Assembly: GCA_963789955.1 (NCBI GenBank)
Contig: CAWBMV010000034.1
Location: 224,001-288,000 of the forward strand
From: an uncultured Candidatus Rokubacteria bacterium
GTDB lineage: Bacteria > Methylomirabilota > Methylomirabilia > Rokubacteriales > CSP1-6
Direction: 5' to 3'
Length of the DNA stretch: 64,000 nt
The stretch's first letter is position 1; every line of letters starts with the position of its first letter. The notes beneath the pieces are model-generated. The model saw only the letters and a program-made list of their open reading frames with translations, searched no databases and was not told the DNA's origin. The position numbers were made by a program, and so were the translations under genes. Shown here one piece after another: positions 11,200 to 27,802 of this stretch.

Positions 11200-12808
11200 T
11201 CAGTCTTCGGACAGCCAGACGTCCTGGAGCTTCTGGTTAGCGTAGTGATTCGGCGGCGCCACGTAGTTCTTCACTTTGGTCCAGTGGACGACGCTGCGAG
11301 TCCACCAGAGACCGGGCATATAGTAGACGTGCTCGAGCACGGTCTTCTGCAGCTGAAGGATCGCCTTGCGCCGTTCCGCGGGGTCGAGCGCGCGCGCCTG
11401 CCGTGAGAACAGGTCATCGACCGCCGGATCGGTGAAGCGGCCCCAGTTCTGCGGATCTCCGGTGGTGTAGCGCCGCAGGAAGATATCGGGGTCGTCACTG
11501 GCCTCGACCGTCGGCGCGACGATCAGCTCGAAGTTGCCGGTGTCTCGTCCGTCGGCGAACCAGGCCGCGGTCTCCTCCGGCCGTTGCTCGGCCTGGATGC
11601 CGATCTTGCGCCACTCCTGAACGGCGAACACCGCGAAGTCCTGATACGGCAGCTTCACGTTTCGGTTCTTGAGCACGACCTTGAAGCCGTTGGGATAGCC
11701 CGCCTCGGCCAGCAGCTTCTTCGCCTCGGCCCGGTTCTTCTCGATGTCCGTGCCGAACCCCGGGAAGCTTTTGCAGCTCGGCCTCCGGCATCGCGAACTC
11801 CGTCCCCGGACGCAGCAGGCCGCCGACGTCCTTCAGGCTCGTGAGCGGGAACAGCACTCGCCCCATCGTGTAGCGATCGAGCGAGAGCGTCAGCGCCTTG
11901 CGCACGCGCTCGTCGGAGAACGGCTTCGCGGTGTTGTTGATCGCGATCCCCCACTGACCGGTCATCGGCGTGTGCTGGACGGCCACCTTGTCGCCCAGCT
12001 GCTTCTTGATCGCCTCGACCTCCGCCAGGGGCAGGTCGCGGAACTCGATGTACGCGCGCCCGGAGCGGATCGCAGCCGCCCGCACCGACGTCTCGGTGCT
12101 GATGAAGAACTTGTAGCCGTTCAGGTAGGGCCGATCCTTGACGAAGTAGTCGGGGTTGCGCTCGCCCTCGAAGCTCGCGCCCGGCGTGTAGCTCTTGAAC
12201 TTGAAAGGACCGGAGCCCATCACGTTCTTCATGAAGTAGTTTGGGTCCTTGTCCAGGTACTTCTTCGGATAGATCACGTTCCACGGCGAGGCCAGATTCA
12301 GAAGCAGCGAGGCCGAGGGGAACTTGAGCTTGAACACGACGGTGCTCGCGTCCGGCGCCTCGATGCTTGTCACGGCCGAGTAGCTGTTCTTCCGGACGCT
12401 GCGTGTCCCTGGGGGCGGGAAGAGGAGCTTGTCGTACGTGGCCTTGACGTCGACGGCCGTCAACGGCGAGCCATCGTGAAACTTGATCCCGGGACGAATC
12501 TTGAACGTGTACGTCAGGGCGTCGGGCGAGATCTTCCATTCGCTCGCGGCGTCCCCGATGATCTTGGGATAGTCGTAGGGGTCCGTCTGAAGCAGGGTGC
12601 TGTAGAGCGGAGCCACGAGCTGGATCGTGGCGAATGTGCTCTCCTGGTGCGGATCGAGACTCGGCGGGTCGGCGCCGATCACGGCCAGCAGAACCCCGCC
12701 ACGACGCGGAGTTTCGGCGGCGTGAATCGCGGGAACCGCCAGCGCGAACGCAACCGTGAGAGCCACGACGAAGCACACCACACGTCGACCCTGGTCGCCT
12801 GCGGCCAT
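11200..12808 (-). CDS. ABC transporter substrate-binding protein, family 5; frameshift near 11760
   Basis: Signal peptide, DPPSLDPH, GSGPFKF and RVRKAL motifs; C-terminus in ORF 11200..11676. Confidence 0.88.
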
Positions 12809-12941: not shown

Positions 12942-13349
12942 TCAGCGAGGGGCGAGCACCATCTGTGTCTGGATCGTCTGGGCCAGCAACCGGCCCGACG
13001 CGTCGGTCACGCGCGTCTGCCACACCATCGTGGTGCGGCCGCGATGCAGCGGCGTGGCTTCGGCGCGCACGACGCCGTCGCGTCCGGCCGCGAAGAAGTT
13101 GGTCTTCGACTCGAGTGTCGTGGTCGAGGCGCCGGGCGGCAGGTTGAGGAACGTCGCGGTGGCGCCGACAGTGTCGGCGAGCGCCATGATCGCGCCGCCG
13201 TGGAGCGCGCCGCCGACCGTTCGGAGGTCGTCGCGGATCGTCAGCTCCGCGACGAGCCGGTCCTTGGAGGCTTCCGTGTAGCGCATGCCGATCAGCCCGG
13301 GCAGAAACGACCGCTGCAAGTCCATGAGCGCATCGAGGTCGATGGTCAC
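12942..13349 (-). CDS. PaaI-family hotdog thioesterase
   Basis: LHGGAIMALAD, TTLESKTNF and LHRGRTTMVW motifs; AGGAG RBS. Confidence 0.9.
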   Translation of the reverse strand: MTIDLDALMDLQRSFLPGLIGMRYTEASKDRLVAELTIRDDLRTVGGALHGGAIMALADTVGATATFLNLPPGASTTTLESKTNFFAAGRDGVVRAEATPLHRGRTTMVWQTRVTDASGRLLAQTIQTQMVLAPR

Positions 13350-13393
13350 GAATGTCTCCTTGGATTGATGCGCGCCCAGAAGCGCCCCGAGGA

Positions 13394-13650
13394 TCAGGCG
13401 GGCGAGTAGCCGCGGTACTCCTCATCCGCCCTGATCCCTCTGATTCGATTGATGATGGCACTATTGGGTTGCGCCTGGGTTGCAGGATCTTGCACCAGGT
13501 CGGCCTGCGAGGGCATCCACTTCGCGTAGACGCGGAGCAGCACGCTCGCGTTCGACCAGCCACCCTGCTGCTGAACGTAGAGGAGCGGCGCGTTCCGAGA
13601 CGGCATGATCGAAGCCCACGACGCCTTGCCGATGTCGATCGCCACGAATG
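13394..13650 (-). pseudogene. Tyrosine recombinase (phage integrase) C-terminal remnant
   Basis: SWASIM..RNAPLLYVQQQGGWSNASVLLRVYAKWMP resembles the integrase box II region with catalytic Tyr; the N-terminal part is lost at the IS3 remnant. Confidence 0.7.
13403..13421. repeat. att core repeat, left copy (displaced DJ-1/PfpI 3' end, EYRGYSPA*)
   Basis: Identical to 23703-23721. Confidence 0.9.
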
Positions 13651-13920
13651 ACGTACCCCCGGGACGGCAAGCCGAACCAGAACGCCGACATCGAGAGCTT
13701 CAACGGCCGCCTCCGAGACGAGTGCCTCAACGAACACTGATTCACGAGCTTATCGTTTGCCCGTCAGACCCTCGAGGCGGGGCGCCTCGACTACAATGCC
13801 GTTCGACCGCACAGCAGCCTGAACCACGCGGCGCCCACGGAGTTCAAGCAACTCACCATGAAGTGGGCCGCCCACCCGATTTTCACATCCTGAGTGGCTC
13901 AGAGTCGGGGAGCCGGTCGG
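13650..13920 (+). pseudogene. IS3-family transposase C-terminal remnant with probable right end
   Basis: KPNQNADIESFNGRLRDECLNEH*FTS...DYNAVRPHSSL, with an internal stop and frameshifts. Confidence 0.85.
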
Positions 13921-14353
13921 AGGAGCTGGCTCAGTTCAGCGTGGACTTGGCTCGTGTGGTGAGGGCATCGCGGGGAGGAACCTAAAGCCGGTTAGGTAGC
14001 CTCGTCAACGACTATGTAACGACTATGTTTTGATACGGCCACCGTCACCGCTAGCGGCAAAGGGACCTCGATTCGAGAATGGGTAGTGGGGCATCCAGCA
14101 GAAAAGGTAAGTGAGCTAATACTCACGCCCACCCAAGCCCTCCTGACGTGGGCGTGCCGGGTCGCGATCGTGGTGCCGCGTGGGGGGACCGGGGCGCGGG
14201 GTGCGATGGCGAAAGCGCGTTTGAAGTTCCTACGCTCGACCTCCGGCTCCCGCGCGCGCGGCACCCGGCGCGGCTTCGGGGTCGACCCCGCTGGCGGTCT
14301 CCCGCATGGCTCCGCGCACGGCCGTCCGACCCATCGCGTCGGTCACGTCGACG

Positions 14354-16138
14354 TCAGCCATCGATCGACAGGCGCTCGAGCTCGCGTCCCAGCATCGCGT
14401 GGACGGCGCGCTGGGCGACGATCGGGCGCACGGTGTGGTCGCGCCCGGGCAGCGTCTCCAGGACAGCGTTGGGCCACTCGTCCATCCGGGCGAGGATGCC
14501 CTCCGAGCGGAGCTCGTCGTAGACCGGCTCGTCGCCGGAGAACCCGAGGACGACCCGGGTCCCCCGATCGCGCAGCGCATCCATGAGGCGCGCCGTGGTG
14601 GGACCCGTCGCGTCCGACCGGGCCGCGGCTGTCAGGCGTCGCGGAGCCCGGACGGCGGCCTTGATGGCGCGCCCGGCCACGGCCCGCGAGACTGCGACCA
14701 TCCGCGAAGCACCCAGCTCGCCCCGGGCGACCCGCCGCCAGACCGAGGGCTGGAGCAGCCGTCCGATCTTCGCCGCCTCCCGGCGCTGGAGCAGCCCGGC
14801 GTCCCACACCATCGCCCCCGGGTTGACGACGAGCGCGGCGATCACCCGGCCGTCCGTCGCCGCCGTGTTCACCGCCCAGTAGGCCCCCGCGCAGAGGCCG
14901 ATCAAGACGAAGCGCGGACCGAGGCCGCGCGCTTGCAGGTCATCCAGGATCGCTCCGACCTCGGCGCCGTAGGCGGGGGTGTAGAAGTTAGCGACGTCAC
15001 GATAGCGGCCCGGGTCGCCGTCCGAGTCGCCGATCCCCTCGAGGTCGACCCGGAACGTGGGGACACCGCGCCGGGTCCAGTCCCGGGCGATCTCGGTCCA
15101 CAGCCGGTTCGGGCCCACCCGCCGGACCGCGCCGGCGTTGAGGAAGACGGCGCAGAGCGGCGTGGCCGGGGCGTCGACGGGCTCGGCGAGCAGGCCGAAG
15201 AGCTGGCCGAACGGCTGCGCGATATGGACGGGTGTTTCCCGGATCGGCCGGCCGTCCAGGCAGAGCTCGAGTCGATCGAGCGCCTCCGGCGCCTCGACCG
15301 CGACGGGGCGCGGCCGCCCGACGGGGGCGCCCGCCAGCCATCGGCCGACCCGGTCGAAGACCTCGGCCGGCGGCGTGTACTGCTCCGGATGGAAGACCAT
15401 GTCCGTCCAGCCCGGGCCGGGGGCCGCCGTGACGTCGACCCCCGCCTCCGCCAGGTGCGCCTCGAGCGCGGCGTCGCGAGCCAGGCCCTCGCGCTGGAGG
15501 AGCAGGGCGCGCTGGAGGCGGCCGAGGGGCAGCTGGTCGAGCTCGAGCGGCGCGATCGCCGCGATCGTCTCCGCCGCCAGGACGAACCCGCCCACCTCCA
15601 GCCAGCCGTCGGGCAGGACGGTCGGCTCGGGCTCGCCGCTCACGCTGTACCGATCGCTCTGGAGAGCGGCGAACGCTCGCTGCTCGCGCAGGAACGCCCG
15701 GCCCCGGGAGGGCGCCGCCCAGAGCACGAGGTCGTCGACCGGCGCACCGTCGGCGATGGCCTTGCCGGCCACGAGACCGCCCAGCCCCAGGCCGATCAGC
15801 GCGACGCGGTCCACGCCCGGGCGGGCGGCGAGCCAGGCAGCGGCGGCGCCGATGGCACTGGTCCAGGCGTCGAGCCGGGCCGGATCGCCCGGCGTGCCGG
15901 CGCTGTCGCCGATCCCCGGCAGGTCGATGCGGAGCGTCGGGTGTCCGTCGGCCGCCAGGCGTTCGGCCCAGGCCCGCCGGCTGGCGTACGACGTGATCTC
16001 GTCCCAGCCCCACGGCCCGACGATGAGGACCGCGGTCGCGGAGTCCGGGCCCGAGGCGGCGTCGTGGAACGTCCCGAAGACCGCGTCGGGCGACGCCCGC
16101 AGCCAGATCGAGCGCGCAGCCGGGGACGGGACGGTCAC
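14354..16138 (-). CDS. Tandem double alpha/beta-hydrolase (resembles fused exosortase-A-system hydrolase 2 and hydrolase 1); putative acyltransferase
   Basis: GTG 16138 overlaps the GH2 stop; two RxDLxGIGDS motifs; elbows IGLGLGG and IGLCAGA; RRVGPNRL; C-terminal GRDHT. Confidence 0.8.
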   Translation of the reverse strand: MTVPSPAARSIWLRASPDAVFGTFHDAASGPDSATAVLIVGPWGWDEITSYASRRAWAERLAADGHPTLRIDLPGIGDSAGTPGDPARLDAWTSAIGAAAAWLAARPGVDRVALIGLGLGGLVAGKAIADGAPVDDLVLWAAPSRGRAFLREQRAFAALQSDRYSVSGEPEPTVLPDGWLEVGGFVLAAETIAAIAPLELDQLPLGRLQRALLLQREGLARDAALEAHLAEAGVDVTAAPGPGWTDMVFHPEQYTPPAEVFDRVGRWLAGAPVGRPRPVAVEAPEALDRLELCLDGRPIRETPVHIAQPFGQLFGLLAEPVDAPATPLCAVFLNAGAVRRVGPNRLWTEIARDWTRRGVPTFRVDLEGIGDSDGDPGRYRDVANFYTPAYGAEVGAILDDLQARGLGPRFVLIGLCAGAYWAVNTAATDGRVIAALVVNPGAMVWDAGLLQRREAAKIGRLLQPSVWRRVARGELGASRMVAVSRAVAGRAIKAAVRAPRRLTAAARSDATGPTTARLMDALRDRGTRVVLGFSGDEPVYDELRSEGILARMDEWPNAVLETLPGRDHTVRPIVAQRAVHAMLGRELERLSIDG

Positions 16139-18738
16139 GCCGGCCGCGCCGCGGTCGCGATGGCGACCCGTCCATCGAGGTTGAGCGCGGTGAGCGCGCC
16201 GCCCGCGAAGGCCCGCCCCGCCATGAGGGGCCGCAGCGCGATCGTGCGCGACCCGCCCGGCTCGACCGAGAAGGCGTCGTCGGACGGCGCGAAGCCGGCC
16301 ACGTGGATCCGGACGCCGTACGCCAGGCGCCGGGTGGCGACCGTCAGGCGGACGCTCCCGTTCGGCTCGGCGCAGGCGCTCGCGGCGAGCCCCAGGCGCT
16401 GCTCCGACTCGACCGCCCGGGGCCGTCCGGCGGGGAAGTGGAACGCCTGCGAGATGAGCTCGACGCCATCGGCGCCGTCGCGCTCCAGGCTCGCCACGAT
16501 CGCGTCCTGGGCGGGCGGGCCGAACCGGTATGCCCAGGCCGCGTCGACGAAGTGTCCGATGAGCACCTCGACATCGCGCTGCGCGGCGCCGTGGGCGGAC
16601 ACCTCGAGCCACTCTTCGCCGTGGCCCACCGGCCGCTCGAGGTCCGAGTACAGGGCGATCCGGACGCGCGCCCGCAGGGCCGCCGGGCCATCGTTCGCGA
16701 TGTGCGCGATGACGCCCCCGATGCCCTCGTCGACCAGCCAGATCGCGCTCGGGGCGAGGATCCGGCGCAGGTGGTGATAGGCGGTCTTCGGGCGGCCGCG
16801 GTCGTCCACGACGCCCCAGCCCGCGCCGGCGACGAGGTCGCGCAGCCACAGGATCAGGCCGCCGCCGCACGGCGACCCGGCCCGACGCCACTCCCCGTAG
16901 ACCTGCTCCATGACCTCTCCGGTCACCGCCCGGGACAGCTCGAGGTAACGGGCGACGTCGTCCCGGCGCAGCGCGGCGGGATCGACCCGGAACAGGAGCG
17001 CGAGGTAGTGGTCGCGCACGTCGTCGAAGTCCCAGCCGGCCCCCGGGTCACGGGCCACTCCGGCCTTCCAGCGCGGATCGTGGATGAACGCCTCGTCGGG
17101 GGATCCGGGGAAGATCGTCGCCAGGGTCTCTTCGTCGGGCACGTTCGCGAACGCGAGGGACTCGCCCGCGAAGCGGAGCCCGCTCGTGCGCGCGTCCGAG
17201 AGCGGTCCGCGATAGCCGCCCACCCCGTAGTAGTTGGTCACGCCCCGATCGGGCCGGATGGGCAGCTCGCCACCGAACGGGGAGGAGGGCACGTAGATGG
17301 CGTCGAGACCGGCCTCGCGCGCCGTCCCGGGGAGCCAGTGGTCGAAGAACGGGATGCGCGCCAGGGCCATGTCCAGGCCGAGCATCGCCACCTGCTGCTC
17401 GATCTCGCTGCTGCCGCACAGGACCGCGGTGCTGGGCCGGCCGGCGAGCCGCTCCACGACGTCCCGGGCCTCCGCCTCCGCCACCCACCGGAAGTCGTCA
17501 TCGGTGAACGGGTAATCCATGCTCGCGAACATGAGATCCTGCCAGACCATCACCCCGAGCTCGTCGCACAGCTCGTGGAAGGCGTCCTGCTCGTAGGGAC
17601 CGAAGCCGGACAGGCGGAGCATGTTCATGCCGGCCGCCCGGACGGTCTCGATGGCCGCCCGCAGCTCCGCCCTCGAGGGCGTCAGGCCGACGATGTCGAG
17701 CGGCATCCACAGGGCCCCCCGGGCGAACACCGGGACGCCATTGACGTGGATGGACAGGCCGTCGCGGTCGATGTCGTGATCCGGCGTGGGGCCCGGGGTC
17801 AGCGTCCGGAAGCCGACCCGCCCCAGGTCGATCGTCGTCGGCCGCACGTCCTCGCCGAGCAGGATCCGGACGTCGTGGAGGGCGGGCTCTCCGTGCGTGT
17901 GGGGCCACCAGCGGCGGACGGCCGGCACCCGCAGCCGGCCCTCCGCGATGAGCTCGTCGGCGGTCCCGTCGGCGGCCTCGACGATGCCGATCGCCGCGCG
18001 GTGGCGACCCGACGGGCCGTCCAGCTCCAAGGTCGTCCGCCCGGTCGGCGCCCCGCCGAGGTTCCGGAGGCGGAGGCGCACGGACAGGATCCCGTCGTCA
18101 CCGTCGAGGCGAGGGCGGAGCGTCGCTCCGAGCACGGCGACCCGCCGCCGGCGCTCGAGCCGCACCGGGCGCCACGGTCCGACCGCGACGGGACCGGGCG
18201 AGAACCCCGGGATCCGGCCGAGCAGCATCGTTCGGAACCAGCGCAGGTTGTTGTCCGGCACGAGCCGGGTCCGCCAGCGCGCCCGCGGCCGGCGCTGTGT
18301 GCCTAGGAGCGGGGCGAGCGCGCGACAGCGGATCGCGAGCTCGTTCGCGCCCCGCAGGAGCGCCCCGACATCGAGCGCGTGGCGCGCGAACATCGAGTCG
18401 CCCTGGAGCAGCAGGTGTCCGTTCAGCCAGACCTCGGCCACGGTCGCGATGCCGTCGAGGTGGAGCACGACCTCCTCGTCGGTCGCGGCGGGCGCGGCCT
18501 CGAACGTCGTCCGGAACCACCAGTCCTGGCTGTCCAGCGGGCCGGCCTCGCGACCCGCGTCGCGCAGGAGGCCGGCCGCCGTGCCGGGGACGCGGGCCGG
18601 GAGCCAGTCGAGGTCGTCGATCGCCTCCGGCGAGGGCCGTCGATCGGGCTCGGCCCAGGCGGCCTGCCAGCCCTGCTCGAGAGGGAGCTGTTCATACCCA
18701 TCGACGTGGGTGCGCGCAGGGGTCAGGCCGGCCGGCAT
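16135..18738 (-). CDS. Glycoside hydrolase family 2 (beta-mannosidase-like) protein
   Basis: DGIATVAEVWLNG, WWPHTHGEP, NGVPVFARG, GMNMLRL, CDELGVMVWQDLMFA, LCGSSE motifs; no signal peptide. Confidence 0.85.
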   Translation of the reverse strand: MPAGLTPARTHVDGYEQLPLEQGWQAAWAEPDRRPSPEAIDDLDWLPARVPGTAAGLLRDAGREAGPLDSQDWWFRTTFEAAPAATDEEVVLHLDGIATVAEVWLNGHLLLQGDSMFARHALDVGALLRGANELAIRCRALAPLLGTQRRPRARWRTRLVPDNNLRWFRTMLLGRIPGFSPGPVAVGPWRPVRLERRRRVAVLGATLRPRLDGDDGILSVRLRLRNLGGAPTGRTTLELDGPSGRHRAAIGIVEAADGTADELIAEGRLRVPAVRRWWPHTHGEPALHDVRILLGEDVRPTTIDLGRVGFRTLTPGPTPDHDIDRDGLSIHVNGVPVFARGALWMPLDIVGLTPSRAELRAAIETVRAAGMNMLRLSGFGPYEQDAFHELCDELGVMVWQDLMFASMDYPFTDDDFRWVAEAEARDVVERLAGRPSTAVLCGSSEIEQQVAMLGLDMALARIPFFDHWLPGTAREAGLDAIYVPSSPFGGELPIRPDRGVTNYYGVGGYRGPLSDARTSGLRFAGESLAFANVPDEETLATIFPGSPDEAFIHDPRWKAGVARDPGAGWDFDDVRDHYLALLFRVDPAALRRDDVARYLELSRAVTGEVMEQVYGEWRRAGSPCGGGLILWLRDLVAGAGWGVVDDRGRPKTAYHHLRRILAPSAIWLVDEGIGGVIAHIANDGPAALRARVRIALYSDLERPVGHGEEWLEVSAHGAAQRDVEVLIGHFVDAAWAYRFGPPAQDAIVASLERDGADGVELISQAFHFPAGRPRAVESEQRLGLAASACAEPNGSVRLTVATRRLAYGVRIHVAGFAPSDDAFSVEPGGSRTIALRPLMAGRAFAGGALTALNLDGRVAIATAARPA

Positions 18739-18742
18739 GGTG

Positions 18743-19717
18743 TCAGCGTACGGCGTCGCGCAGCGAGCTCATCGCCTCGGTCCATGCGTCGCCCAGCGCA
18801 CCCATGGCATCCGTGGGATCGAAGGGCCGGCGTCGGGCCAGCTTGAAGCCGAGCAGCTTGCAGCCCTCGACGATCCGGGCCATCGCCGCGGTCGCCGGGG
18901 CGCCCTCGTCGCCGAGCAACCAATCCACGTGGGAAGCGAGGAGCTCGAAGCCGGCCCCGGCCATCCGGAACGTGGCGAACGTGAACGCGTGGTACAGCGC
19001 GTCGTCACCGGCGAGGAGGGCGGGCAGGTCGGCCGCCAGCCGCGCGCCGAACCGCTCGAACGGGTTGCCGGCGACCACCCGGTCGAGGTGGCCGCGGAGG
19101 ATCCCCCGGGCCGCCGCGCGCAGCGCATCGCCGCGCAGCGTGGGGCCGGCATCGAACCGGATGAGCTCCGTGTACGGCGGCAGCACGTCGTCGGACCAGC
19201 CCGGCCCCAGGCGGAAGGCGCCCCGGAAGTCGTGGTCGGCCAGCTCGTACAGCGACGTGTTGTGGAAATACCGGAACCGCTGCCCGGCCAGGTCGATCGC
19301 CTCGGCGATCACGCCGGTCTTGACGTGGCCCCGTCCGTAGGTCGTGGCGGCCGTGTCGGGCAGGTACCAGGCATCGAGCTCGATGGTCATCGTCCGCCCG
19401 AGCGCGATGAGCTCGGCGATCTGGTCCGGGATCGGGCGATACGGCTGCGTCTCGTGGATGTCCATCCCGTACAGCAGCTCGAGGTCGACCGCGAGCGGCT
19501 TGAAGAACACCCACTGGTCGTTCTCGAAGTCCATCCGGACGAACGATCCGAACGCCGCCAGCGGCTCGTCCCCGCGGGCGTGGAGCAGCTCGATGACGAT
19601 GTCCGTGAAGCAGTCCGTCTCGATGTACGTCCGCTCGCCCGCGTGGAGCGGATGCGGGCGGTACGTCGCCGGGTCGTGGCCGAACAGGCTGACCAGGCCG
19701 GTCGGCACGGCGTTCAC
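18743..19717 (-). CDS. DUF1839 family protein (in frame with the upstream ligase in this assembly)
   Basis: ETDCFTD, DQWVFFKP, ELDAWYLPDT, YGRGHVKT, YFHN and LPPYTE motifs; probable own GTG start at 19717. Confidence 0.75.
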   Translation of the reverse strand: MNAVPTGLVSLFGHDPATYRPHPLHAGERTYIETDCFTDIVIELLHARGDEPLAAFGSFVRMDFENDQWVFFKPLAVDLELLYGMDIHETQPYRPIPDQIAELIALGRTMTIELDAWYLPDTAATTYGRGHVKTGVIAEAIDLAGQRFRYFHNTSLYELADHDFRGAFRLGPGWSDDVLPPYTELIRFDAGPTLRGDALRAAARGILRGHLDRVVAGNPFERFGARLAADLPALLAGDDALYHAFTFATFRMAGAGFELLASHVDWLLGDEGAPATAAMARIVEGCKLLGFKLARRRPFDPTDAMGALGDAWTEAMSSLRDAVR

Positions 19718-20644
19718 GGCCAGCAGCTCCGCTCGCACCTCGTCGGGCCAGGCGTTCAGGTCGAGTCCGTTGGCCCGGAACATGGCCAGCGTGATCCGCT
19801 CCACGCCAAACCCGAGGCACCCGGTATGGGCGATCCCACCGCCCTCCAGGCCGAACCCGTACAGGAGCGTGAAGTGGTCGAGGTGGTAGTTGAACGAGGC
19901 GATCGCGGTGGGCTCCGGGCCGCCGATCTGGGCGACCAGCTCGAACTTCAGCTCCTGGGCGCGCTGGTTGGCGGCGAGCATCCGGCCCGCCCGCCCGAAG
20001 AACGGATCGGCCGCGACCTCCGACTCGGGGCGGATCCCGAGACGGCGGAAGAGCTCGATCGTGCGCTGCTGCCAGTCGTTGCGCCAGGCGGCGACGGTGT
20101 CGGGCGCGCCGATCCGCACGAGCTCGTGCATGTGGAAGATCTGCATCCGGGCCGGGTCGCCCGACGGCTCGTTGCGGAACACCCACGACGCGCCGGTGTC
20201 GACCGTCACGCCGTCCGCCGGCAGCGGCCCGCGCTTGGCGATCTCGGGGTACACCGGGTAGCAGGCGGCCGGCAGGACGACGAGGTCGGTCATCGACTGG
20301 AACCGGCTCCAGTCCTCGTGGCGGCCCGCGACGGCTTCCTGCTCCGCGGCCTCGGCCTCGGACCCATCGAACGAGAAGACCGTGCCGAGCAGGTGCGGGA
20401 ACGATCCCAGGTAACCGTTGGTCTCGAGCTGCTGGCGGGGCAGGAGCGGCGGGAAGCGCATCGGCTCGGCGCCGTCGGCTGCGCCCGCTCGGGACAGCGC
20501 GGCGCAGAACCCCAGCCGGGCCCGCTCGAAGTCGGATCCCTGCCCGTAGACGCCGGGCAGGACCGTCTCGACGAGGAGGCCGTGGTCGATGAGGGCGGCG
20601 AGGAACGCCGCCTGCTCAGCGGTCGCCGCCCGGAACTGGGTCAT
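19714..20644 (-). CDS. Amino acid--[acyl-carrier-protein] ligase (atypical SerRS homolog)
   Basis: GYLGSFP, LPAACYPVY, FRNEPS, ADPFFGR, AIASFNYH and HTGCLGFGVERI motifs; no tRNA-binding domain; adjacent ACP. Confidence 0.9.
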
Positions 20645-21827
20645 CAGACGTCCTTAGCGATCAGCAGCAGGCTGGCGTTCGTCTGGTGGATCCGGTCGTT
20701 GGCCACCATGAGGCTGGCCGACATCGTGTCCCGCAGGTGGCGTCCGACGCTGAACGGCGTGTCGTTCTTGTAGCCGACGATCCCGCACACCGCCATCGCC
20801 CCCTGGCAGACCCTCGGCGCCTGCTCGGACGCCGCGATCTTGAGGTTGTTGAAGCGCAGGATCATGGCCATTGTCGAGAGCTTCTCGCGGTCGTCGCCGA
20901 CGGACGAATCGGTGAAGTCGCGCATGGCCGAGCTGACCTCGGCCCGGAGCAGCGACAGCTCGCTCATCAGGTGCGAGAGCCGCGTGGCGGTCGGCGGCAC
21001 GATGTCGGGCCGGCCCTTCGCGGACGCCTTGACGAACGCCCGCGCCCGGTCGAACGCGTCGGTGGCGATGCCCAGCCACAGGTGCGACCACAGGATGTGC
21101 GAGATCGGCACCATCGATTCGATACCGGCACCGCGAGAACGGCGCCGGCAGCACCTGCTCGACGGGGAACTCGGCCCGGACGACGTAGCCCGGCGAGCAC
21201 GTGCCGCGCATGCCCAGCGGGTCCCAGGTTCCGGTCGGCTCGAGGGTGTACTGCTCCGGTGGGTCAGGACGAGGACCTGGTCGCCCGGCTCGGCGTCGGG
21301 AGCCCGGCGCAGGGTCGTGAGCAGGTCGTCCGCGTCGGCGCCGTAGGAGACCGTCGGCGCCTGCTTCTCGAAGGTGGCCCGGCCGTCGCCGGACGGGGTG
21401 ACCGCCGCGATCGAGCGCCCGAGGTCGCCGCCCGTGCCGACCTCCGAGGTGACCGAGGCAACGAGTCGCTGGTCGCGGGCGACCTCGCGCAGGTACGCCG
21501 CGAACCAGGCGTCGCCGTCCACATGGCGCACGATCGTCGCGATCATGGATCTGGTGCATCGCGAAGACCATCGCGCTGGCGCCACACCGGCGGCCGAGCT
21601 CGAAGCACGCCGCGGCGATCGCCGGGAACGAGACGCCGCCGCCGCCGTACTCCTCGGGGATGAGCGCCGACAGGGCTCGCTCGGCCCGCAGGGCATCGAT
21701 GGTCTCCGCCGGGAACCGCGCGTCGCGGTCGACTCGGTCGGCGTTGGGCGCCGCGAACTCGTCCGCGATGCGGCGGATCGGTCCGGGTGAACGCCTGGTC
21801 CCGGTCCAGCGCGGCCGCGGTGGTCAT
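20644..21827 (-). CDS. Acyl-CoA/acyl-ACP dehydrogenase family protein; several frameshifts
   Basis: Pieces in three frames: VDRDARFPAE, SAMVFAMHQI, SVTSEVGTGGD, WDPLGMRGTCS, FNNLKIAASE, GIVGYKNDTPFSVGRHLRD. ATG 21827 overlaps the ACP stop. Confidence 0.85.
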
Positions 21828-22069
21828 TCTGCGGACTTCCCCAGCTGCTGGAGCGCTTCCCGGATCGAGGAGACGCTCTGGAAGACGCTCCGCTTGAGCA
21901 TCGAGTCCGGGAACTCCACGTCGAACGCCGTCTCGAGGGCGAGCATGAGGTTCACGCTCGCATGGGAGGTCATGCCCGCCTGGTACAGGTCGGCCTGGTC
22001 GCCCAGGGTCTGGACGTCGACCGACAGGCGGCCGTGCTCCTGGATGATCTGTCGGATCTTGTCGCTCAT
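21824..22069 (-). CDS. Acyl/aminoacyl carrier protein
   Basis: 81 aa, acidic; DLYQAGMTSHASVNLMLALE (Ppant serine) and FDVEFPD; GAGG RBS. Confidence 0.92.
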   Translation of the reverse strand: MSDKIRQIIQEHGRLSVDVQTLGDQADLYQAGMTSHASVNLMLALETAFDVEFPDSMLKRSVFQSVSSIREALQQLGKSAE

Positions 22070-22171
22070 GACCGTCGCCTCGTCCTCGCCTCGTGGTGCT
22101 ATTTCGCCGTGGGCCGCGACCGGGATTTTCGGCCCGGAGCAAGTGCAGTCGAGGCGTCAACGCCCACGGAA

Positions 22172-23050
22172 TCAGACAACGCCTGTGCCGGTTGGAGGAC
22201 CTCCGACCGTCCACGCTTCACCCATGATCTCGGCAAGACTTCTAAAATCACCCGTGTACGGGCTCACCGCCCACTGACACGGAACCGAGATCGTCACCGG
22301 AGTCTTGTCGTTGTAGTCCAGTTCCGTCCAATCCGATACGTCGATGACGTTCTCGTCGGCGTCGACGTCACCGAGCGTGAGGATCCAACCGAGCGGCCAG
22401 AAGGCGAATCCCGCTACGAGGTGACCCTTGCGCCGCTCAAGCTTCAGCGCGAACCCGGTCATCATTCCGCCAGGATTCGCTCTGAGGTAGAGCCAGAGGC
22501 GTAGTGGAGCGATGCGCCGTATTGCGGTGCGGTCAAGCAGCAATTCCCGGAGCACCGGGTACCTCGCCGTGATCCCGGGTTGGGACGACGCAGCGAATGA
22601 GGCGAGCGCTTCCTTCGCGACGCGCTGGCGGTGAGCGGTGACGTTCAGCGGGCAAGACCTCCCGGCGTTCTTCGGCTGGGCAAACGGCGAGGCGAGGCGC
22701 ACGAATCTGACGTATGCCGGGTTGTACCAGCTGCCGGTGTGGTTGTTGCAGGAGGCACACAGCGTCTCGAGCGTCGCGCCGTAGATGCGCTCACTCCGCC
22801 AGCGTACCGCTCCGGCGACTGCAGACGCGGCGTCATCGATCATTCCCCGGAACATCGGACCGACGTTTCCGGCCTTCTTCGAGGGCGCGTGCTCCGCGGT
22901 GAGCGCAGCTTGGGACCCGCAGATGCAACATGTAGAGGGGTTACCGAGCGCCTCGATCTCGGCAATCTCCGCCATGAGGCGAGCCGCCTCTGCCTCCATA
23001 CCAGGGAAATGGCGCTCGTCGCCCGGTCTGGTGACCCACATCTTCAGCAT
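22172..23050 (-). CDS. Hypothetical protein with HNH-like zinc-finger motifs
   Basis: CCICG...LTAEHAP and LCASCNN motifs; lower GC than the neighbouring operon. Confidence 0.65.
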   Translation of the reverse strand: MLKMWVTRPGDERHFPGMEAEAARLMAEIAEIEALGNPSTCCICGSQAALTAEHAPSKKAGNVGPMFRGMIDDAASAVAGAVRWRSERIYGATLETLCASCNNHTGSWYNPAYVRFVRLASPFAQPKNAGRSCPLNVTAHRQRVAKEALASFAASSQPGITARYPVLRELLLDRTAIRRIAPLRLWLYLRANPGGMMTGFALKLERRKGHLVAGFAFWPLGWILTLGDVDADENVIDVSDWTELDYNDKTPVTISVPCQWAVSPYTGDFRSLAEIMGEAWTVGGPPTGTGVV

Positions 23051-23132
23051 GGTGTCGATTGTCTCACCCGGAGACGGTGCGTCGCACGAGCGGATCGCGG
23101 TGAGGCGCGAATGAACGAGGCCGCGGGACTCG

Positions 23133-23291
23133 CTACCGCGCTCGCCGGCGCTGTATCGGGCGTTGACGCTTTGGCTTGTCGCCGCGCGGTGACCTCCCGG
23201 TGTAGTCTCGCTTTGGCTCGGCCGCCTTGGTCACCTTCGGGCGTGCCAGGTCGGGCTCGTCGGCTGAGATTCCGTTTTGGTTGGTCTCCAT
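23133..23291 (-). CDS. Small hypothetical protein (52 aa, basic C-terminus)
   Basis: Strong RBS GAGGAGGT before ATG 23291; METNQNG...RQRPIQRRRAR. Confidence 0.35.
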   Translation of the reverse strand: METNQNGISADEPDLARPKVTKAAEPKRDYTGRSPRGDKPKRQRPIQRRRAR

Positions 23292-23693
23292 GCCTACCTC
23301 CTCTCCGTAATTGTGGCGAAGTTCCGGGGAGCACTTCAAGTCGATGACCTGGCGCTCTCCCTACTTCGACCTCGTCTCCGGCCTCTTCGTCCCGCGGCTC
23401 GTCACCCGGGATCCAGAGACCGGCGCCGGCGGGCCGCGGTGACGTCAGGTACGACGCACGGCCGCTTCGGACACGACTCATCGGCCTCGCGGCTGATCGG
23501 CGTGAGGCGCGGCAGGGAGGACGCAGGACAAGCGTTCTGTAGCGCGTGGCGCGCTCGAGATTCCCCGGAGACGAGCAGGCGCGCGTGACCCGGGCAGGGG
23601 AGGAAGAGAGAGCCCGGTTGCGCCTGGGTTGCGACTTCCTGCCGCGCTATGCCGCTTCTTGCAACCACCCGCTCTGGAACTACGCGGGGTTTC

Positions 23694-24278
23694 TCACTCC
23701 TTCGAGTAGCCGCGGTACTCCATCTGGTTGGCGATCCGGACGCGCGCGTCGGTGCCCCAGTACTTCTCGACGAGATAGAGTCCGAGATCGAGCGACGACG
23801 ACACGCCGCCGGCCGTCACGACGCGCCCCTCGTCGACCACGCGCCGATTCGTGACGACCTCGCGGCAGAGCGGCCGCAGCAGCTCCACCGCCAGATGATG
23901 CGTCGTCGCGCGCTTGTCGCGCAGATACCCCGCGCGTCCGAGCAGGAGCGCGCCGGAGCAGACCGAGGCCAGCGGCCGTTCGTCGCCCCACGTCTTCAGG
24001 TAGTCGATGGCGCGCCGGTTGTCCATCAGCGCGACGGTCCCGAGCCCACCCGCGACGTAGAGGAGGTCGAAGCCCGCGAGGTCTTCGTACACCGCGTCGG
24101 GTTTGAGCATCAGACCAGACTCGTCGACGATCTCGGCCTCGGTCCCGATGATCCGGTGGGTCACACTCGAATCGATGGACATCGCCGCGACGCGTCGCAG
24201 GGCGTCGTAGGCGCCGATCAGATCGAGGAGCGTCAGCCGCGGGAAGACGAAGAACGCGATGCGCTTCGGTGCCGCCAT
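23694..24278 (-). CDS. DJ-1/PfpI family protein (isonitrile hydratase-like)
   Basis: TLLDLIG, LYVAGG, ASVCSGALLLG, ATTH and TAGGVSSSLD motifs. Confidence 0.9.
   Translation of the reverse strand: MAAPKRIAFFVFPRLTLLDLIGAYDALRRVAAMSIDSSVTHRIIGTEAEIVDESGLMLKPDAVYEDLAGFDLLYVAGGLGTVALMDNRRAIDYLKTWGDERPLASVCSGALLLGRAGYLRDKRATTHHLAVELLRPLCREVVTNRRVVDEGRVVTAGGVSSSLDLGLYLVEKYWGTDARVRIANQMEYRGYSKE
23703..23721. repeat. att core repeat, right copy (within the DJ-1/PfpI 3' end)
   Basis: Identical to 13403-13421. Confidence 0.9.
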
Positions 24279-24282
24279 GGCG

Positions 24283-24807
24283 TCAGCAGGGCTGGACCGA
24301 GGCCTTGTGGCGCTGCGCGAGCGCCTGGTAGCCTTCGGGATTGGCGCGCACCCAGCGCTCCGCCGGGGTGCCGGCGAGCGGACCGCGCACCTTGGCCGGC
24401 GCGCCGAGCGCGAGGGTGCCCTCGGGGATCTCGGTCTCGGGCGTCACGAGCGCGCCGGCGGCGATCATCGCGCGCGCGCCGATGCGCGCGCCGTCGAGCA
24501 CCGTCGCGCCGTTGCCGATCAGGCACTCTTCTCCGAGCCACGCCGCGTGAATCGTGCAGTTGTGGCCGACCGTCGCGCCGGCGCCGATCTCGGTCCCGCC
24601 ACGCGGCGTGACGTGCACGACCGCGCAGTCCTGGACGTTGGCGCCGCGGCGTACGACGATCGGATTGAAGTCGCCGCGGAGCACGGCGTTGTACCACACG
24701 GACGCGCGCTCCTCGATCGTCACGTCTCCGACGATCACGGCGGTGGGCGCAACGAACGCGGTGGGATGGACTCTCGGGCTCTTGCCCTCGAAGCTGAACA
24801 GTGGCAT
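24283..24807 (-). CDS. Gamma carbonic anhydrase family protein (YrdA/PaaY-like)
   Basis: MPLFSFEGKSPRVHPTAF, VLRGD, NVQD..VVH, TVGH and IHA motifs; hexapeptide repeats. Confidence 0.92.
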   Translation of the reverse strand: MPLFSFEGKSPRVHPTAFVAPTAVIVGDVTIEERASVWYNAVLRGDFNPIVVRRGANVQDCAVVHVTPRGGTEIGAGATVGHNCTIHAAWLGEECLIGNGATVLDGARIGARAMIAAGALVTPETEIPEGTLALGAPAKVRGPLAGTPAERWVRANPEGYQALAQRHKASVQPC

Positions 24808-24876: not shown

Positions 24877-25902
24877 ATGCCGTTCCCGAAGATCGCGGCC
24901 GTCGCCACTGCGACGCCGCCCCATCGCTACACGCAGTCGCAAGTCCTGACGCTCGCGGGGTATCGAGACGAGGAGCGGAGCGGGTTTTTTCGTCGCAGCG
25001 ACATCGACGGCCGCTATCTGTGGATCGATCCGGCGACGTTCCGGCCCAACGAGTCGGTCGACGAGCTCAACGACCGTTTTCGCGAGGGCGCGCTCGAGCT
25101 CGGCGAGTCGGCAGCTCGCCGGGCACTCGACCGAGCCGGCTGGAAGATCTCCGATGTGGATTTCATCGCGACGACGACGTGCACCGGGCGCCTCACGCCG
25201 AGTCTCGACGCCCGCCTGATCGCCCGGCTCGGCTGCCGCGCGGACATCCAGCGCGTCCACGTCGGCGACACCGGCTGCGCCTCCGCGATGGTGGCGCTCC
25301 AGCAAGCGTCGAACTACGTCACTGCGTTTCCCGGGCGCCGGGCGCTGGTCGTCGCGGTCGAGATCTGCTCGGCGACCTACTTCCTGGACGACCGGCTCGA
25401 GAGCGCGGTGGCCCACGCTATCTTCGCCGACGGCGCCGGCGCGCTCGCGGTGACGACCGACGGACCGGGGCCGTCGCTGGTCGCTCAGCGGACGCTGTTC
25501 CGCTCCGAGCATCTCGACGCGATGGGATTCGAGTATCCGGGCGGCCGGCCGCGCGTGGTGCTCTCCAAGGACGTGCGCCGCATCGGCGCGGTCATGATGG
25601 GCGAGATGGCGGCGATCCTGATGGGCACGCAAGGGCTCAAGCGCGAGGACATCGCGTACTGGGTCCTCCACTCCGCGGGACGACGCGTGATCGACCGCGC
25701 CCGAACCTTGCTCGAGCTCAGCGAGGAGCAAGTCAGCCACTCGCGCTCCGTGCTGCGACGCTTCGGCAACATGTCATCGGCCACGATCCTCTTCGTCCTG
25801 GAAGAAACGCTTCGCGACGAGTCTCCGGTTCCCGACGATTGGGGCGTCATGATCGGTCTGGGGCCCGGCTTCGCCGCCGAAGGAGCGCTGCTGCGGTGGT
25901 GA
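24877..25902 (+). CDS. Type III polyketide synthase
   Basis: TTCTG, GC (catalytic Cys), EICS, FADGA, WVLHSAG, FGNMSSAT and GLGPG motifs; strong RBS. Confidence 0.92.
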   Translation: MPFPKIAAVATATPPHRYTQSQVLTLAGYRDEERSGFFRRSDIDGRYLWIDPATFRPNESVDELNDRFREGALELGESAARRALDRAGWKISDVDFIATTTCTGRLTPSLDARLIARLGCRADIQRVHVGDTGCASAMVALQQASNYVTAFPGRRALVVAVEICSATYFLDDRLESAVAHAIFADGAGALAVTTDGPGPSLVAQRTLFRSEHLDAMGFEYPGGRPRVVLSKDVRRIGAVMMGEMAAILMGTQGLKREDIAYWVLHSAGRRVIDRARTLLELSEEQVSHSRSVLRRFGNMSSATILFVLEETLRDESPVPDDWGVMIGLGPGFAAEGALLRW

Positions 25903-25906
25903 TCCC

Positions 25907-26603
25907 GTGAAACGGGCTGACGGCGCGCGGGAGGTGCTCGACGGGGCGGTCGCGACACAAGAGCTCGCGGCCTCGCTGGCGGACATCGACCGCCTCAACA
26001 GCTGGTTCGGCGGCTACGCCCTCTCGCTGCGCGCGATCCGCCGTCTGGCGGCCGAGGTCCCGCGCGCTCGGCCGCTTCGAGTCATCGACGTCGGCGGCGG
26101 GACGGCGGCGTTCGCGGTGCGCGTGGTCCGGTGGGCGCGGCGCAGCGGTCGCGACCATCCGCGTCGTCGTCGTCGATCGCGACCCGACCTCGCTCCGGCT
26201 CGCGCGCGCGGCCGTCGCGGCGTACCCGGAGATCTCGCTGGTGTGCGGCGACGCGGCCGCGCTGCCGTGCCGCGAGCGGGCGGTCGACATCGTCACCAGC
26301 GCCCTCACGCTCCATCACCTCGAGCCGGCGCAGGCCGCCGCGGGGCTGCGCGAGATGACGGCGGCCGCGCGGATCGGGGTGGTCGTGAACGATCTGCTTC
26401 GGCGCCGGCTCTCGCTCGGCCTCGTGTGGCTCGTCACTCGTCTCCTGGGTTGCCACCCGATCTCGCGTCACGACGGCCCGCTCTCGGTGCGGCGCTCGTA
26501 TTCGCGCGACGAGCTGCGGGCGCTCGCCGAGAAGGCCGGCGCGCGGCGGCTGACGATCCGCGAGTACCCCGTGCTGGGTCGCCTGGTGGCGGTCCTGTCG
26601 TGA
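25907..26603 (+). CDS. Class I SAM-dependent methyltransferase; frameshift near 26150
   Basis: EVLD, IDRLNSWFGG and IDVGGG in the first frame; LTLHHL, VVNDL and RHDGPLSVRRSY in ORF 26241..26603. Confidence 0.85.
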
Positions 26604-27802
26604 CGACCGACGTCATCGTCGTCGGCGCCGGCCCCGCGGGCGCGGCGACGGCCATTCTCATGGCCGAGCACGGGCTCTCCGTCGCGCTCCTCGATCGCGC
26701 GCGGTTTCCGCGACCGAAGATCTGCGGAGAGTACCTGAGCCCGGAAGCCCCGCGACTGCTGGATCGGCTCGGCGCGCTGAAGGCGGTCGATGCCGTCGCC
26801 AGCACCTTGAAGGGCATGCGGATCACCGCGCCCAACGGCAAGACCCTCGTCGGGACGTACCGGCCGATCGGAGCGTGGCGTCCGTATCGCGAGCACGCGA
26901 TGGCGATCACGCGCGAGGCCCTCGACGCGATCCTCGTCGACCGCGTCCGCGCGCTGCCCGTCGACTTCCGCGAGCAGACGCGCGTCACCGACCTCGTCGT
27001 GGCGGGCGGCCGCGTGCTCGGCGTCGAGGCGCTCGATGCGGACGCCCGTCGCCTGACCCTGCGCGCTCCGCTGACGATCGCCGCCGACGGCCGCGCGTCG
27101 GTCGTCGCCCAGCGACTCGGGCTTCGCCGGTCGCATCGCCTCCAGCGGATGGCGATGGTCACCTACGTCGAGGGCGTGAGCGGCCTCGGGCGTGTCGGCG
27201 AGATCTTCGTCGATCCGCCGGACTACGCGATCCTGAATCCGGTGGCGCCCGGACGCGCGAACCTCAGCGTCGTCGTGCCCCTGGCGCACGCCACGCCGTG
27301 GAGCGGCCGCCTCGACACCTTCTTCGACGCGCGCGTGAAGCATTTGCCGCACCTCGCGCGGCGCATCGCCGGGGGCCGCCGCGTCGCGCCGGTCCGCGCG
27401 ATGGGCCCGCTCGCGTACCGGGTCGACGCGCCGCGCACCGGCGGCGTGCTCATGGTCGGCGACGCCACGGGCTTCTACGATCCGTTCTCGGGCGAGGGGA
27501 TCTTCAACGGTCTGCGGAGCGCGGAGCTCGCGGTGGAGACGGCCGTGCAGGCGCTCGGTCGCGGCGACCTCTCGGTTCGCGGGCTGGCCGGATACGATCG
27601 CGCCCGCCGCCTGGCGACCCGCGACAAGGAGCGCGTGACGCACGCGCTCCAGTTCGTCATCAGCCACCGTCGGCTCGCCAACCTGGCCGCGCGGATTCTC
27701 GCGCGCCGCCCGCGTCTGCTCGACCTCCTGCTCGGTGTTCTCGGCGACTTCGTGCCGCCCCGCGCGCTCGTGAGCGGCCTGCTCGCGCGCTCGCGATTCT
27801 GA
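26600..27802 (+). CDS. FAD-dependent oxidoreductase (geranylgeranyl reductase/monooxygenase-like)
   Basis: VVGAGPAG, FPRPKICGE, AADG and VGDATGFYDPFSGEGI motifs; GTGA overlap start. Confidence 0.9.
   Translation: MTTDVIVVGAGPAGAATAILMAEHGLSVALLDRARFPRPKICGEYLSPEAPRLLDRLGALKAVDAVASTLKGMRITAPNGKTLVGTYRPIGAWRPYREHAMAITREALDAILVDRVRALPVDFREQTRVTDLVVAGGRVLGVEALDADARRLTLRAPLTIAADGRASVVAQRLGLRRSHRLQRMAMVTYVEGVSGLGRVGEIFVDPPDYAILNPVAPGRANLSVVVPLAHATPWSGRLDTFFDARVKHLPHLARRIAGGRRVAPVRAMGPLAYRVDAPRTGGVLMVGDATGFYDPFSGEGIFNGLRSAELAVETAVQALGRGDLSVRGLAGYDRARRLATRDKERVTHALQFVISHRRLANLAARILARRPRLLDLLLGVLGDFVPPRALVSGLLARSRF

Follow-up and report, generated by a model that had tools for sequence, protein, structure and literature searches.

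A six-gene amino acid:[carrier protein] ligase cassette carried by a genomic island in a Candidatus Rokubacteria genome, with a possible role in glycan tailoring

The described systems closest to the locus considered here are those of the amino acid:[carrier protein] ligases, whose biological role was stated to be unknown in a 2022 review (PMC9437257, accessible text), and a five-gene neighborhood published in 2023 together with the C(T/S)H triad of its DUF1839 member, for which the authors suggest cell-wall glycan processing (Ozhelvaci and Steczkiewicz; PMC10318531, accessible text). A search under the ligase names, with most subscription papers outside it, returned no pathway product, and the accessible parts of PMC10616846, PMC9684580, PMC7474642, and PMC10888616 contain nothing on one. 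The locus itself is a six-gene cassette at positions 14354..22069 of a 64,000-nucleotide stretch of DNA, hereafter the window, from an uncultured Candidatus Rokubacteria bacterium (GenBank assembly GCA_963789955.1, contig CAWBMV010000034.1, positions 224,001 to 288,000). An earlier reading made from the letters alone (the sequence-only reading) presented it as an uncharacterized system; it is not an undescribed one, the five-gene neighborhood being already in print (PMC10318531, accessible text).

The cassette was acquired recently by this genome, is carried as island cargo, and belongs to an orphan system that was already known. New in this analysis are the match between the predicted DUF1839 fold and CcbD and CtaG, the lack of the catalytic glutamate in the flavoenzyme, the GH2_14 motif, the placement of the cassette in the Burkholderia bep and bec clusters, and a 99% identical copy at another integration site.

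The six genes and their predicted functions

All six genes were found within the proposed span, on the minus strand, with junctions that overlap or lie 4 nt apart, and each product matched its expected family, so the operon described by the sequence-only reading was recovered in full. Its GC content (0.733 compared with a genome mean of 0.683, sd 0.018) exceeds that of all 3264 genome windows of 7.7 kb, in line with the earlier description of the region as very GC-rich; at third codon positions the excess (0.93-0.95) over six host genes (0.82-0.94) is slight. The genes are as follows.

14354..16138, minus strand: double alpha/beta-hydrolase, 594 amino acids (aa), with Cys416-acid537-His568 in the C-terminal domain and an N-terminal domain lacking the nucleophile
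16135..18738, minus strand: GH2 glycosidase, 867 aa, with a GH2_14-type SE motif and intact Glu445 and Glu526
18743..19717, minus strand: DUF1839 protein, 324 aa, a papain-like putative transacylase (PF08893; Cys32, Thr130, His148)
19714..20644, minus strand: amino acid:[carrier protein] ligase, 309 aa (PRK07080), with zinc ligands
20644..21827, minus strand: flavoenzyme of the acyl-CoA dehydrogenase (ACAD) fold, about 393 aa, without the catalytic Glu (corrected frames; residues taken from intact relatives)
21824..22069, minus strand: dedicated acyl carrier protein (ACP), 81 aa (PRK07081), with phosphopantetheine Ser35

As assembled in the window, the flavoenzyme gene has four frameshifts and is spread over three frames, and the ligase and DUF1839 form a single open reading frame (ORF) of 633 aa. 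Comparison of the window with contigs from eight public sequencing runs of soil, rhizosphere, or sediment revealed five indel differences inside the cassette: one base fewer at 19724 (six of the eight runs, X3 and X11 having no listed long piece there), at 21130 (six of eight), and at 21547 and 21778 (each in seven of eight), and one base more at 21257/8 (at least four runs among the matches listed). By arithmetic, the corrected frames give a flavoenzyme of 393 aa, a ligase of 309 aa, and a separate DUF1839 protein of 324 aa, which are the sizes found in relatives, and an identical stand-alone 324-aa DUF1839 protein heads a cluster of 163 sequences. The five indels of the window are assembly errors, because the short-read contigs of public runs differ from it at those five places; the same contigs and the stand-alone DUF1839 protein rule out a natural ligase-DUF1839 fusion. 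Host genes at 11200-12808, 32933-34437, and 39017-40013 are each split into two ORFs, which is consistent with long-read indel errors throughout the window. Two RNA runs (X15 and X16) also have contigs on the cassette; contigs cannot show transcription.

The ligase and its carrier are the most securely assigned members, and their identification in the sequence-only reading was borne out by family models above cut-off and intact catalytic residues. The ligase part scores 367 bits against PRK07080 (cut-off 357) and corresponds to a catalytic core of about 309 aa with no tRNA-binding domain (E 8e-72 to solved amino acid:[carrier protein] ligases); its zinc ligands C128 (89/91), E174 (90/91), and C276 (90/91) align, together with motif-2 R157, with Bll0957 of Bradyrhizobium. 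The ACP scores 113 bits against PRK07081 (NCBIfam cut-off 72) and keeps the phosphopantetheine serine in 71/71 sequences. Loading of a small amino acid onto the ACP would thus follow from homology. Position 278 is Gly in the window ligase and in 73 of 91 homologs and Ala in the other 18, as in both solved Bradyrhizobium glycine ligases, including Bll0957. Glycine at this position presumably admits alanine, and the window enzyme likely loads L-alanine on the cassette ACP.

The phosphopantetheinyl transferase (PPTase) at 2036-2785, named earlier as able to prime this ACP, is present but lies outside the island; it is of the Sfp type and stands between a thioesterase gene and an adenylation-type gene (motif judged by eye). 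Its partnership with the cassette is unsupported, because it belongs to another cluster and, among 36 long loci, 18 have an AcpS-type gene adjoining the cassette; the window genome has an AcpS-like gene on contig C37. That other cluster, at 1-3561, is the end of a separate nonribosomal peptide synthetase/polyketide synthase-type cluster comprising a type II thioesterase, the PPTase, and the adenylation-type gene, which runs off the window.

Residues and fold of the flavoenzyme were read from the intact relative L014, which is 55-75% identical to the window frames; the window frames share its motifs. The position of the dehydrogenase glutamate (371) is occupied by Val or Ile in all 64 cassette members and mostly by Ile or Val in 150 distant representatives, with no Glu among the listed residues. 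No conserved acid lies at 234-248 (E234 occurs in 41/64 members and 31/150 distant representatives), and His241, Trp244, and Trp248 are invariant (64/64). The motif W-D-x-x-G-M-R-G-T-C-S is conserved, and its W-D-x-x-G-M-R part has an aligned counterpart in KijD3 but none in the dehydrogenase shown. The family profile places KijD3 first (3e-23), a dehydrogenase next (9e-23), and DnmZ fifth, with a nitrososynthase among the best matches; Foldseek lists the monooxygenase TdsC first among ties. The enzyme is probably not a classical dehydrogenase, because the catalytic Glu is missing; of the earlier ACAD assignment, the fold and the place of the gene in the operon stand, and classical dehydrogenase function probably does not. 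The ACAD homolog ChmG, described as Glu-less and KijD3-like, N-oxygenates carrier-bound proline (PMC10849742, accessible text). In the cassettes the same flavoenzyme family occurs beside Gly278 and Ala278 ligases (the latter 18/91), and glycine has no beta-carbon, so the reaction would take place at the amine rather than by alpha,beta-desaturation. In nearly every locus, the flavoenzyme gene stands between those of the ACP and the ligase. The enzyme likely N-oxygenates carrier-bound alanine. A flavin reductase gene is found beside 15 of 121 loci, and six of these 15 lack the HpaB gene that the reductase could otherwise serve.

The DUF1839 protein (PF08893, E 1.5e-79) retains the C(T/S)H triad almost throughout the family (Cys 65/66, Thr or Ser 65/66, His 66/66). 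Its structural model (predicted local distance difference test score 95) matches AziU3, CcbD, and CtaG over the whole chain (template modeling score about 0.6, E 5e-8 to 3e-5, 310-355 columns); for the next fold, the E-value drops to 0.02. The CtaG paper assigns AsbE and BtrH to the same transacylase class and reports that CcbD acylates an amino sugar (PMC12865890, accessible text), which bears out the BtrH-like logic proposed for this protein by the sequence-only reading. By its predicted fold, DUF1839 may be a carrier-to-amine transacylase; it would work like CtaG-class enzymes, and we do not file it as a member of the class.

In the GH2 protein, each catalytic Glu is present in 67/67 sequences, SE replaces NE (Ser444 in 66/67), and Gly378 (64/67) falls, judged by eye, in the pocket glycine column of PMC12243196. 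These motifs, rather than a CAZy subfamily model, suggest an enzyme of the GH2_14 type; its closest solved relatives are beta-mannosidases, and no hydrophobic stretch was seen by eye at the N-terminus. Two assayed GH2_14 members are slow beta-galactosidases (published values of 300-500 M-1 s-1 on pNP-Gal) with no mannosidase activity, for which a pocket for substituted substrates has been proposed (PMC12243196, accessible text). The sixth protein appears to be a fused, distant relative of the exosortase-A-associated hydrolases TIGR03100 and TIGR03101, to which it scores below both cut-offs (77 bits against 168 and 73 bits against 203, respectively). The Cys, acid, and His of its second domain are each conserved in 52/52 sequences, its first domain is dead, and comparison with solved structures gave weak generic matches only.

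Distribution, polysaccharide context, and the proposed pathway

Conservation was assessed in 102 loci found through DUF1839 (L011-L112), counting only loci with enough flanking sequence; these loci are related and were picked by similarity, so the counts are not independent. The ligase accompanies DUF1839 in 72/73 loci, the flavoenzyme in 59/60, the ACP in 57/58, GH2 in 59/60, and the hydrolase in 34/46. The six genes that the sequence-only reading treated as one pathway occur as a complete set in 32 of 43 loci from several taxa. In an even sample of one proteobacterial phylum, DUF1839 was present in 19 of 401 genomes (about 5%); among 19 regions from 18 proteobacterial genomes, the five core genes are present in 18 of the 18 with flanks (the nineteenth ends at a contig edge), and 12 regions have the hydrolase. 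Two Azospirillum plasmids carry the six genes in the window's order, and the cassette is also present in Chloroflexota and Actinomycetota soil lineages. Cluster names for the host gene that flanks the island include Methylomirabilota and Binatia, which points to a Methylomirabilota host. Within the host phylum, DUF1839 was found in one of 201 genomes, the window's own. A genome outside the listed ones, G011, has a separate copy: its locus in the host genus (L027; G011:C24:822000-841999) has the full six-gene cassette and AcpS beside an insertion sequence (IS), and this cassette was acquired separately, because its DUF1839 belongs to a different clade of a 40-protein tree.

Across the neighborhoods scanned, no exporter, glycosyltransferase, aminotransferase, or nucleotide-sugar gene is kept with the cassette. 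Genes for a carboxylesterase, an HpaB-type oxygenase, and a flavin reductase are found repeatedly directly downstream of it (L013-L024, L026, L037, L038), the oxygenase in 8 and the esterase in 11 of 36 long loci. In one further locus (L114, genome G438), GH2 is flanked on either side by a DUF1839 gene, the two pointing toward each other within a single polysaccharide cluster. A link to a nonribosomal peptide synthetase suggested by plasmid match H3 was dropped, the H3 copy being an IS-broken remnant.

The glycan link of the sequence-only reading finds support in Burkholderia, in which Crp-type regulators and a sigma-54 activator flank the cassette as part of a Wzy-type cluster; in L030, L123, and L124, the order is Crp regulator, ACP, ACAD, ligase, DUF1839, GH2, and sigma-54 regulator. 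The bep cluster encodes a TIGR03100 hydrolase, Bcam1334 (PMC3584217, accessible text). In a biofilm screen, 15 of 18 genes of the homologous bec cluster were hit, including the acyl-CoA dehydrogenase becG, and the becG flavoenzyme mutant formed less biofilm (PMC5507470, accessible text). By synteny, becF would encode the ACP, and becF and becH-K would map to cassette genes. A neighbor scan that covered 110 of 156 predicted ORFs and 15 of 19 proteobacterial regions, with no background rate for polysaccharide genes, found glycosyltransferase or Wzx/Wzy-pathway genes in the 20-kb regions of 8 of the 15 loci (in one, a lone GT2), and several Chloroflexota loci have such genes as well. In the window host itself, six Wzz-type matches score above cut-off and five priming-transferase loci are present, all outside the island.

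These elements can be assembled into a four-step model. The zinc-dependent ligase would form alanyl-AMP and acylate the ACP, primed in trans by a host PPTase. The Glu-less flavoenzyme would then act as a reduced-flavin N-oxygenase like ChmG and KijD3, giving N-hydroxy-alanyl-S-ACP or, upon further oxidation, 2-oximino-propanoyl-S-ACP. Cys32 of DUF1839 would, judging from its fold, take over the acyl group and make an amide with an amine, as CcbD, CtaG, BtrH, and AsbE do; the predicted acceptor is an amine carried by a sugar unit from which a surface polysaccharide is built. Finally, and more tentatively, the GH2_14-type enzyme might cleave a beta-galacto-type glycoside that is bulky or carries nitrogen at C2 and thereby provide the acceptor or edit the product, and the Cys hydrolase could perform a second transfer onto the glycan or remove stalled carrier. 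In the window genome, the cassette cargo would act on a host glycan made elsewhere.

We assign this model as a whole, the transfer of an N-oxidized alanyl group to a glycan building block, a probability of about 0.4. Glycan or amino-sugar tailoring in some form is rather probable. The more specific proposal, that the cassette puts an alanine- or glycine-derived N-hydroxy- or oximino-acyl group on biofilm polysaccharides and is a module spreading among soil bacteria, is doubtful. If it is true, the substituent would be an undescribed, possibly metal-binding one, missed since Bep was extracted with alkali.

Several observations weigh against the model. The VIA-align comparison ranks dehydrogenases first (Z 41.9, rmsd 2.8, 366 aligned) over KijD3 (Z 39.7, rmsd 2.5, 364 aligned), the predicted fold does not separate an oxygenase from a dehydrogenase, and the margin between the KijD3 and dehydrogenase profiles given above is small. 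Flavin reductase genes occur only in a single related group of Chloroflexota type and in three other loci; the window island and all 19 proteobacterial regions lack them. The hydrolase is missing in 12 of 46 loci. No polysaccharide-synthesis genes lie near 7 of the 15 proteobacterial loci, the Azospirillum lipoferum locus, or the cassette on the window island. In the bec screen, becF was in the library and was not among the hits (PMC5507470, accessible text), and transposon effects there may be polar. The Bep repeat consists only of Gal, Glc, and Man, with no amino sugar, and was extracted with 0.3 M NaOH (PMC7084887, accessible text); because amides survive alkali and esters would not, the group on Bep would be an ester or its acceptor would lie elsewhere. 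Finally, no oximino- or N-hydroxy-acyl glycan was found among the matches listed (best 15 of 404), most subscription papers being outside that search.

The same flavoenzyme evidence bears on a glycan-tailoring alternative in which the enzyme is an amine dehydrogenase or oxidase, the imine is hydrolyzed to pyruvoyl- or glyoxylyl-ACP, and this acyl group is transferred as an amide or ester. Such a reaction suits both Gly and Ala and requires neither a carboxylate base nor a flavin reductase, which most loci lack, and the best structural matches are dehydrogenases; set against this are the KijD3-like motif, KijD3 as the top profile match, and the ChmG precedent, and an amino acid would presumably be a roundabout carrier of pyruvate, which leaves this version unlikely. 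Alternatively, unmodified alanine or glycine might be placed on an amino sugar as by CcbD, with the sugar or the product as the flavoenzyme's substrate, in the way that KijD3 acts on a nucleotide amino sugar. The CcbD fold match and the presence of the amino-sugar enzymes KijD3, DnmZ, and a nitrososynthase among the best profile matches point that way, but the near-constant position of the flavoenzyme gene between those for the ACP and ligase and the lack of a conserved aminotransferase or nucleotide-sugar gene make it improbable.

Other explanations concern the product and the state of the window copy. The cassette could make or process a diffusible glycoconjugate or metabolite (a signal, chelator, or detoxified compound), its proximity to polysaccharide genes then reflecting common biofilm regulation. 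A self-contained 7.9-kb module that travels without polysaccharide genes, the small-molecule pathways of all solved fold relatives of DUF1839, the HpaB oxygenase and esterase in part of the long loci, and a Bep without amino sugar are in keeping with this, but no exporter or glycosyltransferase is conserved, several lineages have flippase, polymerase, and glycosyltransferase genes interspersed among those of the cassette, and the becG mutant has a biofilm phenotype; we regard this explanation as unlikely. That the window copy is decaying cargo with real frameshifts and a dead operon is very improbable: the four frameshifts and the fusion, the other split host genes, and an integrase present only as a remnant could be so read, but frame-restoring differences occur at the same places in contigs of seven of eight independent runs, and L011 and L012, 99% identical to the window, have the ligase and DUF1839 in separate frames. 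The run contigs that restore the frames largely refute a pseudogene reading. The transfer of an N-oxidized alanyl group remains our preferred model.

The role of the amino acid:[carrier protein] ligases has been a question since 2010, and the joined evidence from the cassette makes it testable. As a discovery, the window copy adds little; a new glycan substituent, if true, would matter for biofilm chemistry.

The island and its near-identical copies

The cassette lies on a 10.3-kb island flanked by a 19-bp target repeat, an exact 19-mer with only two copies in the genome, which duplicates the 3' end of a DJ-1/PfpI gene. In shuffled sequence, 0.01 matches to the 17-base core of the repeat would be expected; a general repeat finder with default seeds did not place the pair among its top 20 families. 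The features of the island outside the cassette are as follows.

13403..13421: left 19-bp target repeat, carrying the original 3' end of the DJ-1/PfpI gene
23703..23721: right 19-bp target repeat, within the 3' end of the host DJ-1/PfpI gene (23694-24278)
13394..13645, minus strand: short ORF, a candidate integrase remnant, with no Pfam or NCBIfam match
13666..13890 (end approximate), plus strand: broken IS transposase remnant with an internal stop; other IS copies have loose ends at 13666
22172..23050, minus strand: island passenger gene, possibly HNH-like, outside the cassette, with no Pfam match and present in 0/36 long loci

The att-bounded island proposed in the sequence-only reading is confirmed by the exact repeats, by contigs of run X1 (13029-17040 and 17011-24339) that cross both island ends into host DNA, and by the empty site in relatives, where the DJ-1 gene adjoins a hotdog thioesterase gene without an insert and, in L003 and L004, ends with matching sequence. 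The island is real and polymorphic, because the X1 contigs span both ends and contigs of X2, X3, and X15 span the empty site; a misassembled or chimeric island is ruled out, the X1 contigs bridging both ends and X11 the left one. A tRNA target site was rejected, there being no tRNA in the window. Inside the island, no integrase-sized ORF or integrase family match was found, only short remnants. The ORF at 13394..13645 resembles the C-terminus of a tyrosine integrase, and we take the remnant at 13666..13890 to be an IS transposase of the integrase-core type. The passenger gene product has a Cys-x2-Cys and a His motif; its look-alikes in the Atlas (0.94-0.97) are hypothetical proteins, one cluster of which is 13% HNH_5.

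The cassette forms a 7.9-kb module (window 14274-22141) with copies of about 99% identity in other settings. Several runs cease to match at 14253-14303 and at 22141, and X7 diverges at both 14303 and 22141. L012 is 99.0% identical over 14274-19798 and then runs on into an integrase-like remnant and tRNA-Ser. Short contigs that were binned to other phyla (possible misbins) carry copies of 98.8-99.0% identity, one of the copies adjoining tRNA-Ser. At least 15 runs hold more than half of the module's words, and the 20 holder runs come from 19 studies. In the DUF1839 tree, the window copy groups with Chloroflexota and Dormiibacterota sequences in a clade of 14 rows (100/100), which points to a likely Chloroflexota-type donor. 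In L009, from another genus, the DJ-1/PfpI gene ends with a tail like the island-derived one of the window (23694-23721), and the 3' end of this gene may be a repeated integration site. Just beyond the right end of the island, at 24877-27802, come a gene resembling those of type III polyketide synthases, a small ORF, and a gene for an FAD-dependent oxidoreductase.

Comparison with known systems

The amino acid:[carrier protein] ligase systems of Bradyrhizobium (Bll0957; PDB 3mey, 4h2s-4h2y) and Agrobacterium (Atu2573) and the published neighborhood share five families and their gene order with the window, whose sixth gene, the double Cys hydrolase, is not part of the five-gene description (PMC10318531, accessible text). 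In contrast to those systems, the window copy is island cargo in a phylum nearly without the cassette (1/201). The bep (B. cenocepacia Bcam1330-1349) and bec (B. pseudomallei becA-R) clusters have the cassette gene order and a hydrolase homolog, whereas the island has no polysaccharide-synthesis genes. BmGH2_14 and SdGH2_14 of CAZy GH2_14 share with the window GH2 the SE motif, both Glu residues, and a Gly near the pocket position.

Like ChmG, KijD3, and DnmZ, the cassette flavoenzyme lacks the catalytic Glu; it has W-D-x-x-G-M-R in common with KijD3, and the ChmG substrate is a carrier-bound amino acid. Its identity to the N-oxygenases is about 21-23%, it is structurally no closer to them than to true dehydrogenases, and ChmG was compared by description only. 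CtaG, CcbD, BtrH, and AsbE combine a papain-like N-terminal domain with a helical bundle and use catalytic Cys and His, as in the DUF1839 model, for which a carrier-bound donor is expected; in contrast, DUF1839 is only 9-17% identical to them, has a permuted C(T/S)H triad instead of Cys-His-Asp, and has as its top match AziU3, which is no transacylase. With the butirosin pathway (BtrI, BtrJ, BtrO, BtrH), the cassette shares a common plan of carrier loading, flavin oxygenation, and papain-like transfer to an amine. The cassette differs from that pathway in using an aminoacyl-tRNA synthetase-like ligase instead of an ATP-grasp enzyme and an ACAD fold instead of that of BtrO, and in having no decarboxylase, glutamyl protection, or aminoglycoside genes.

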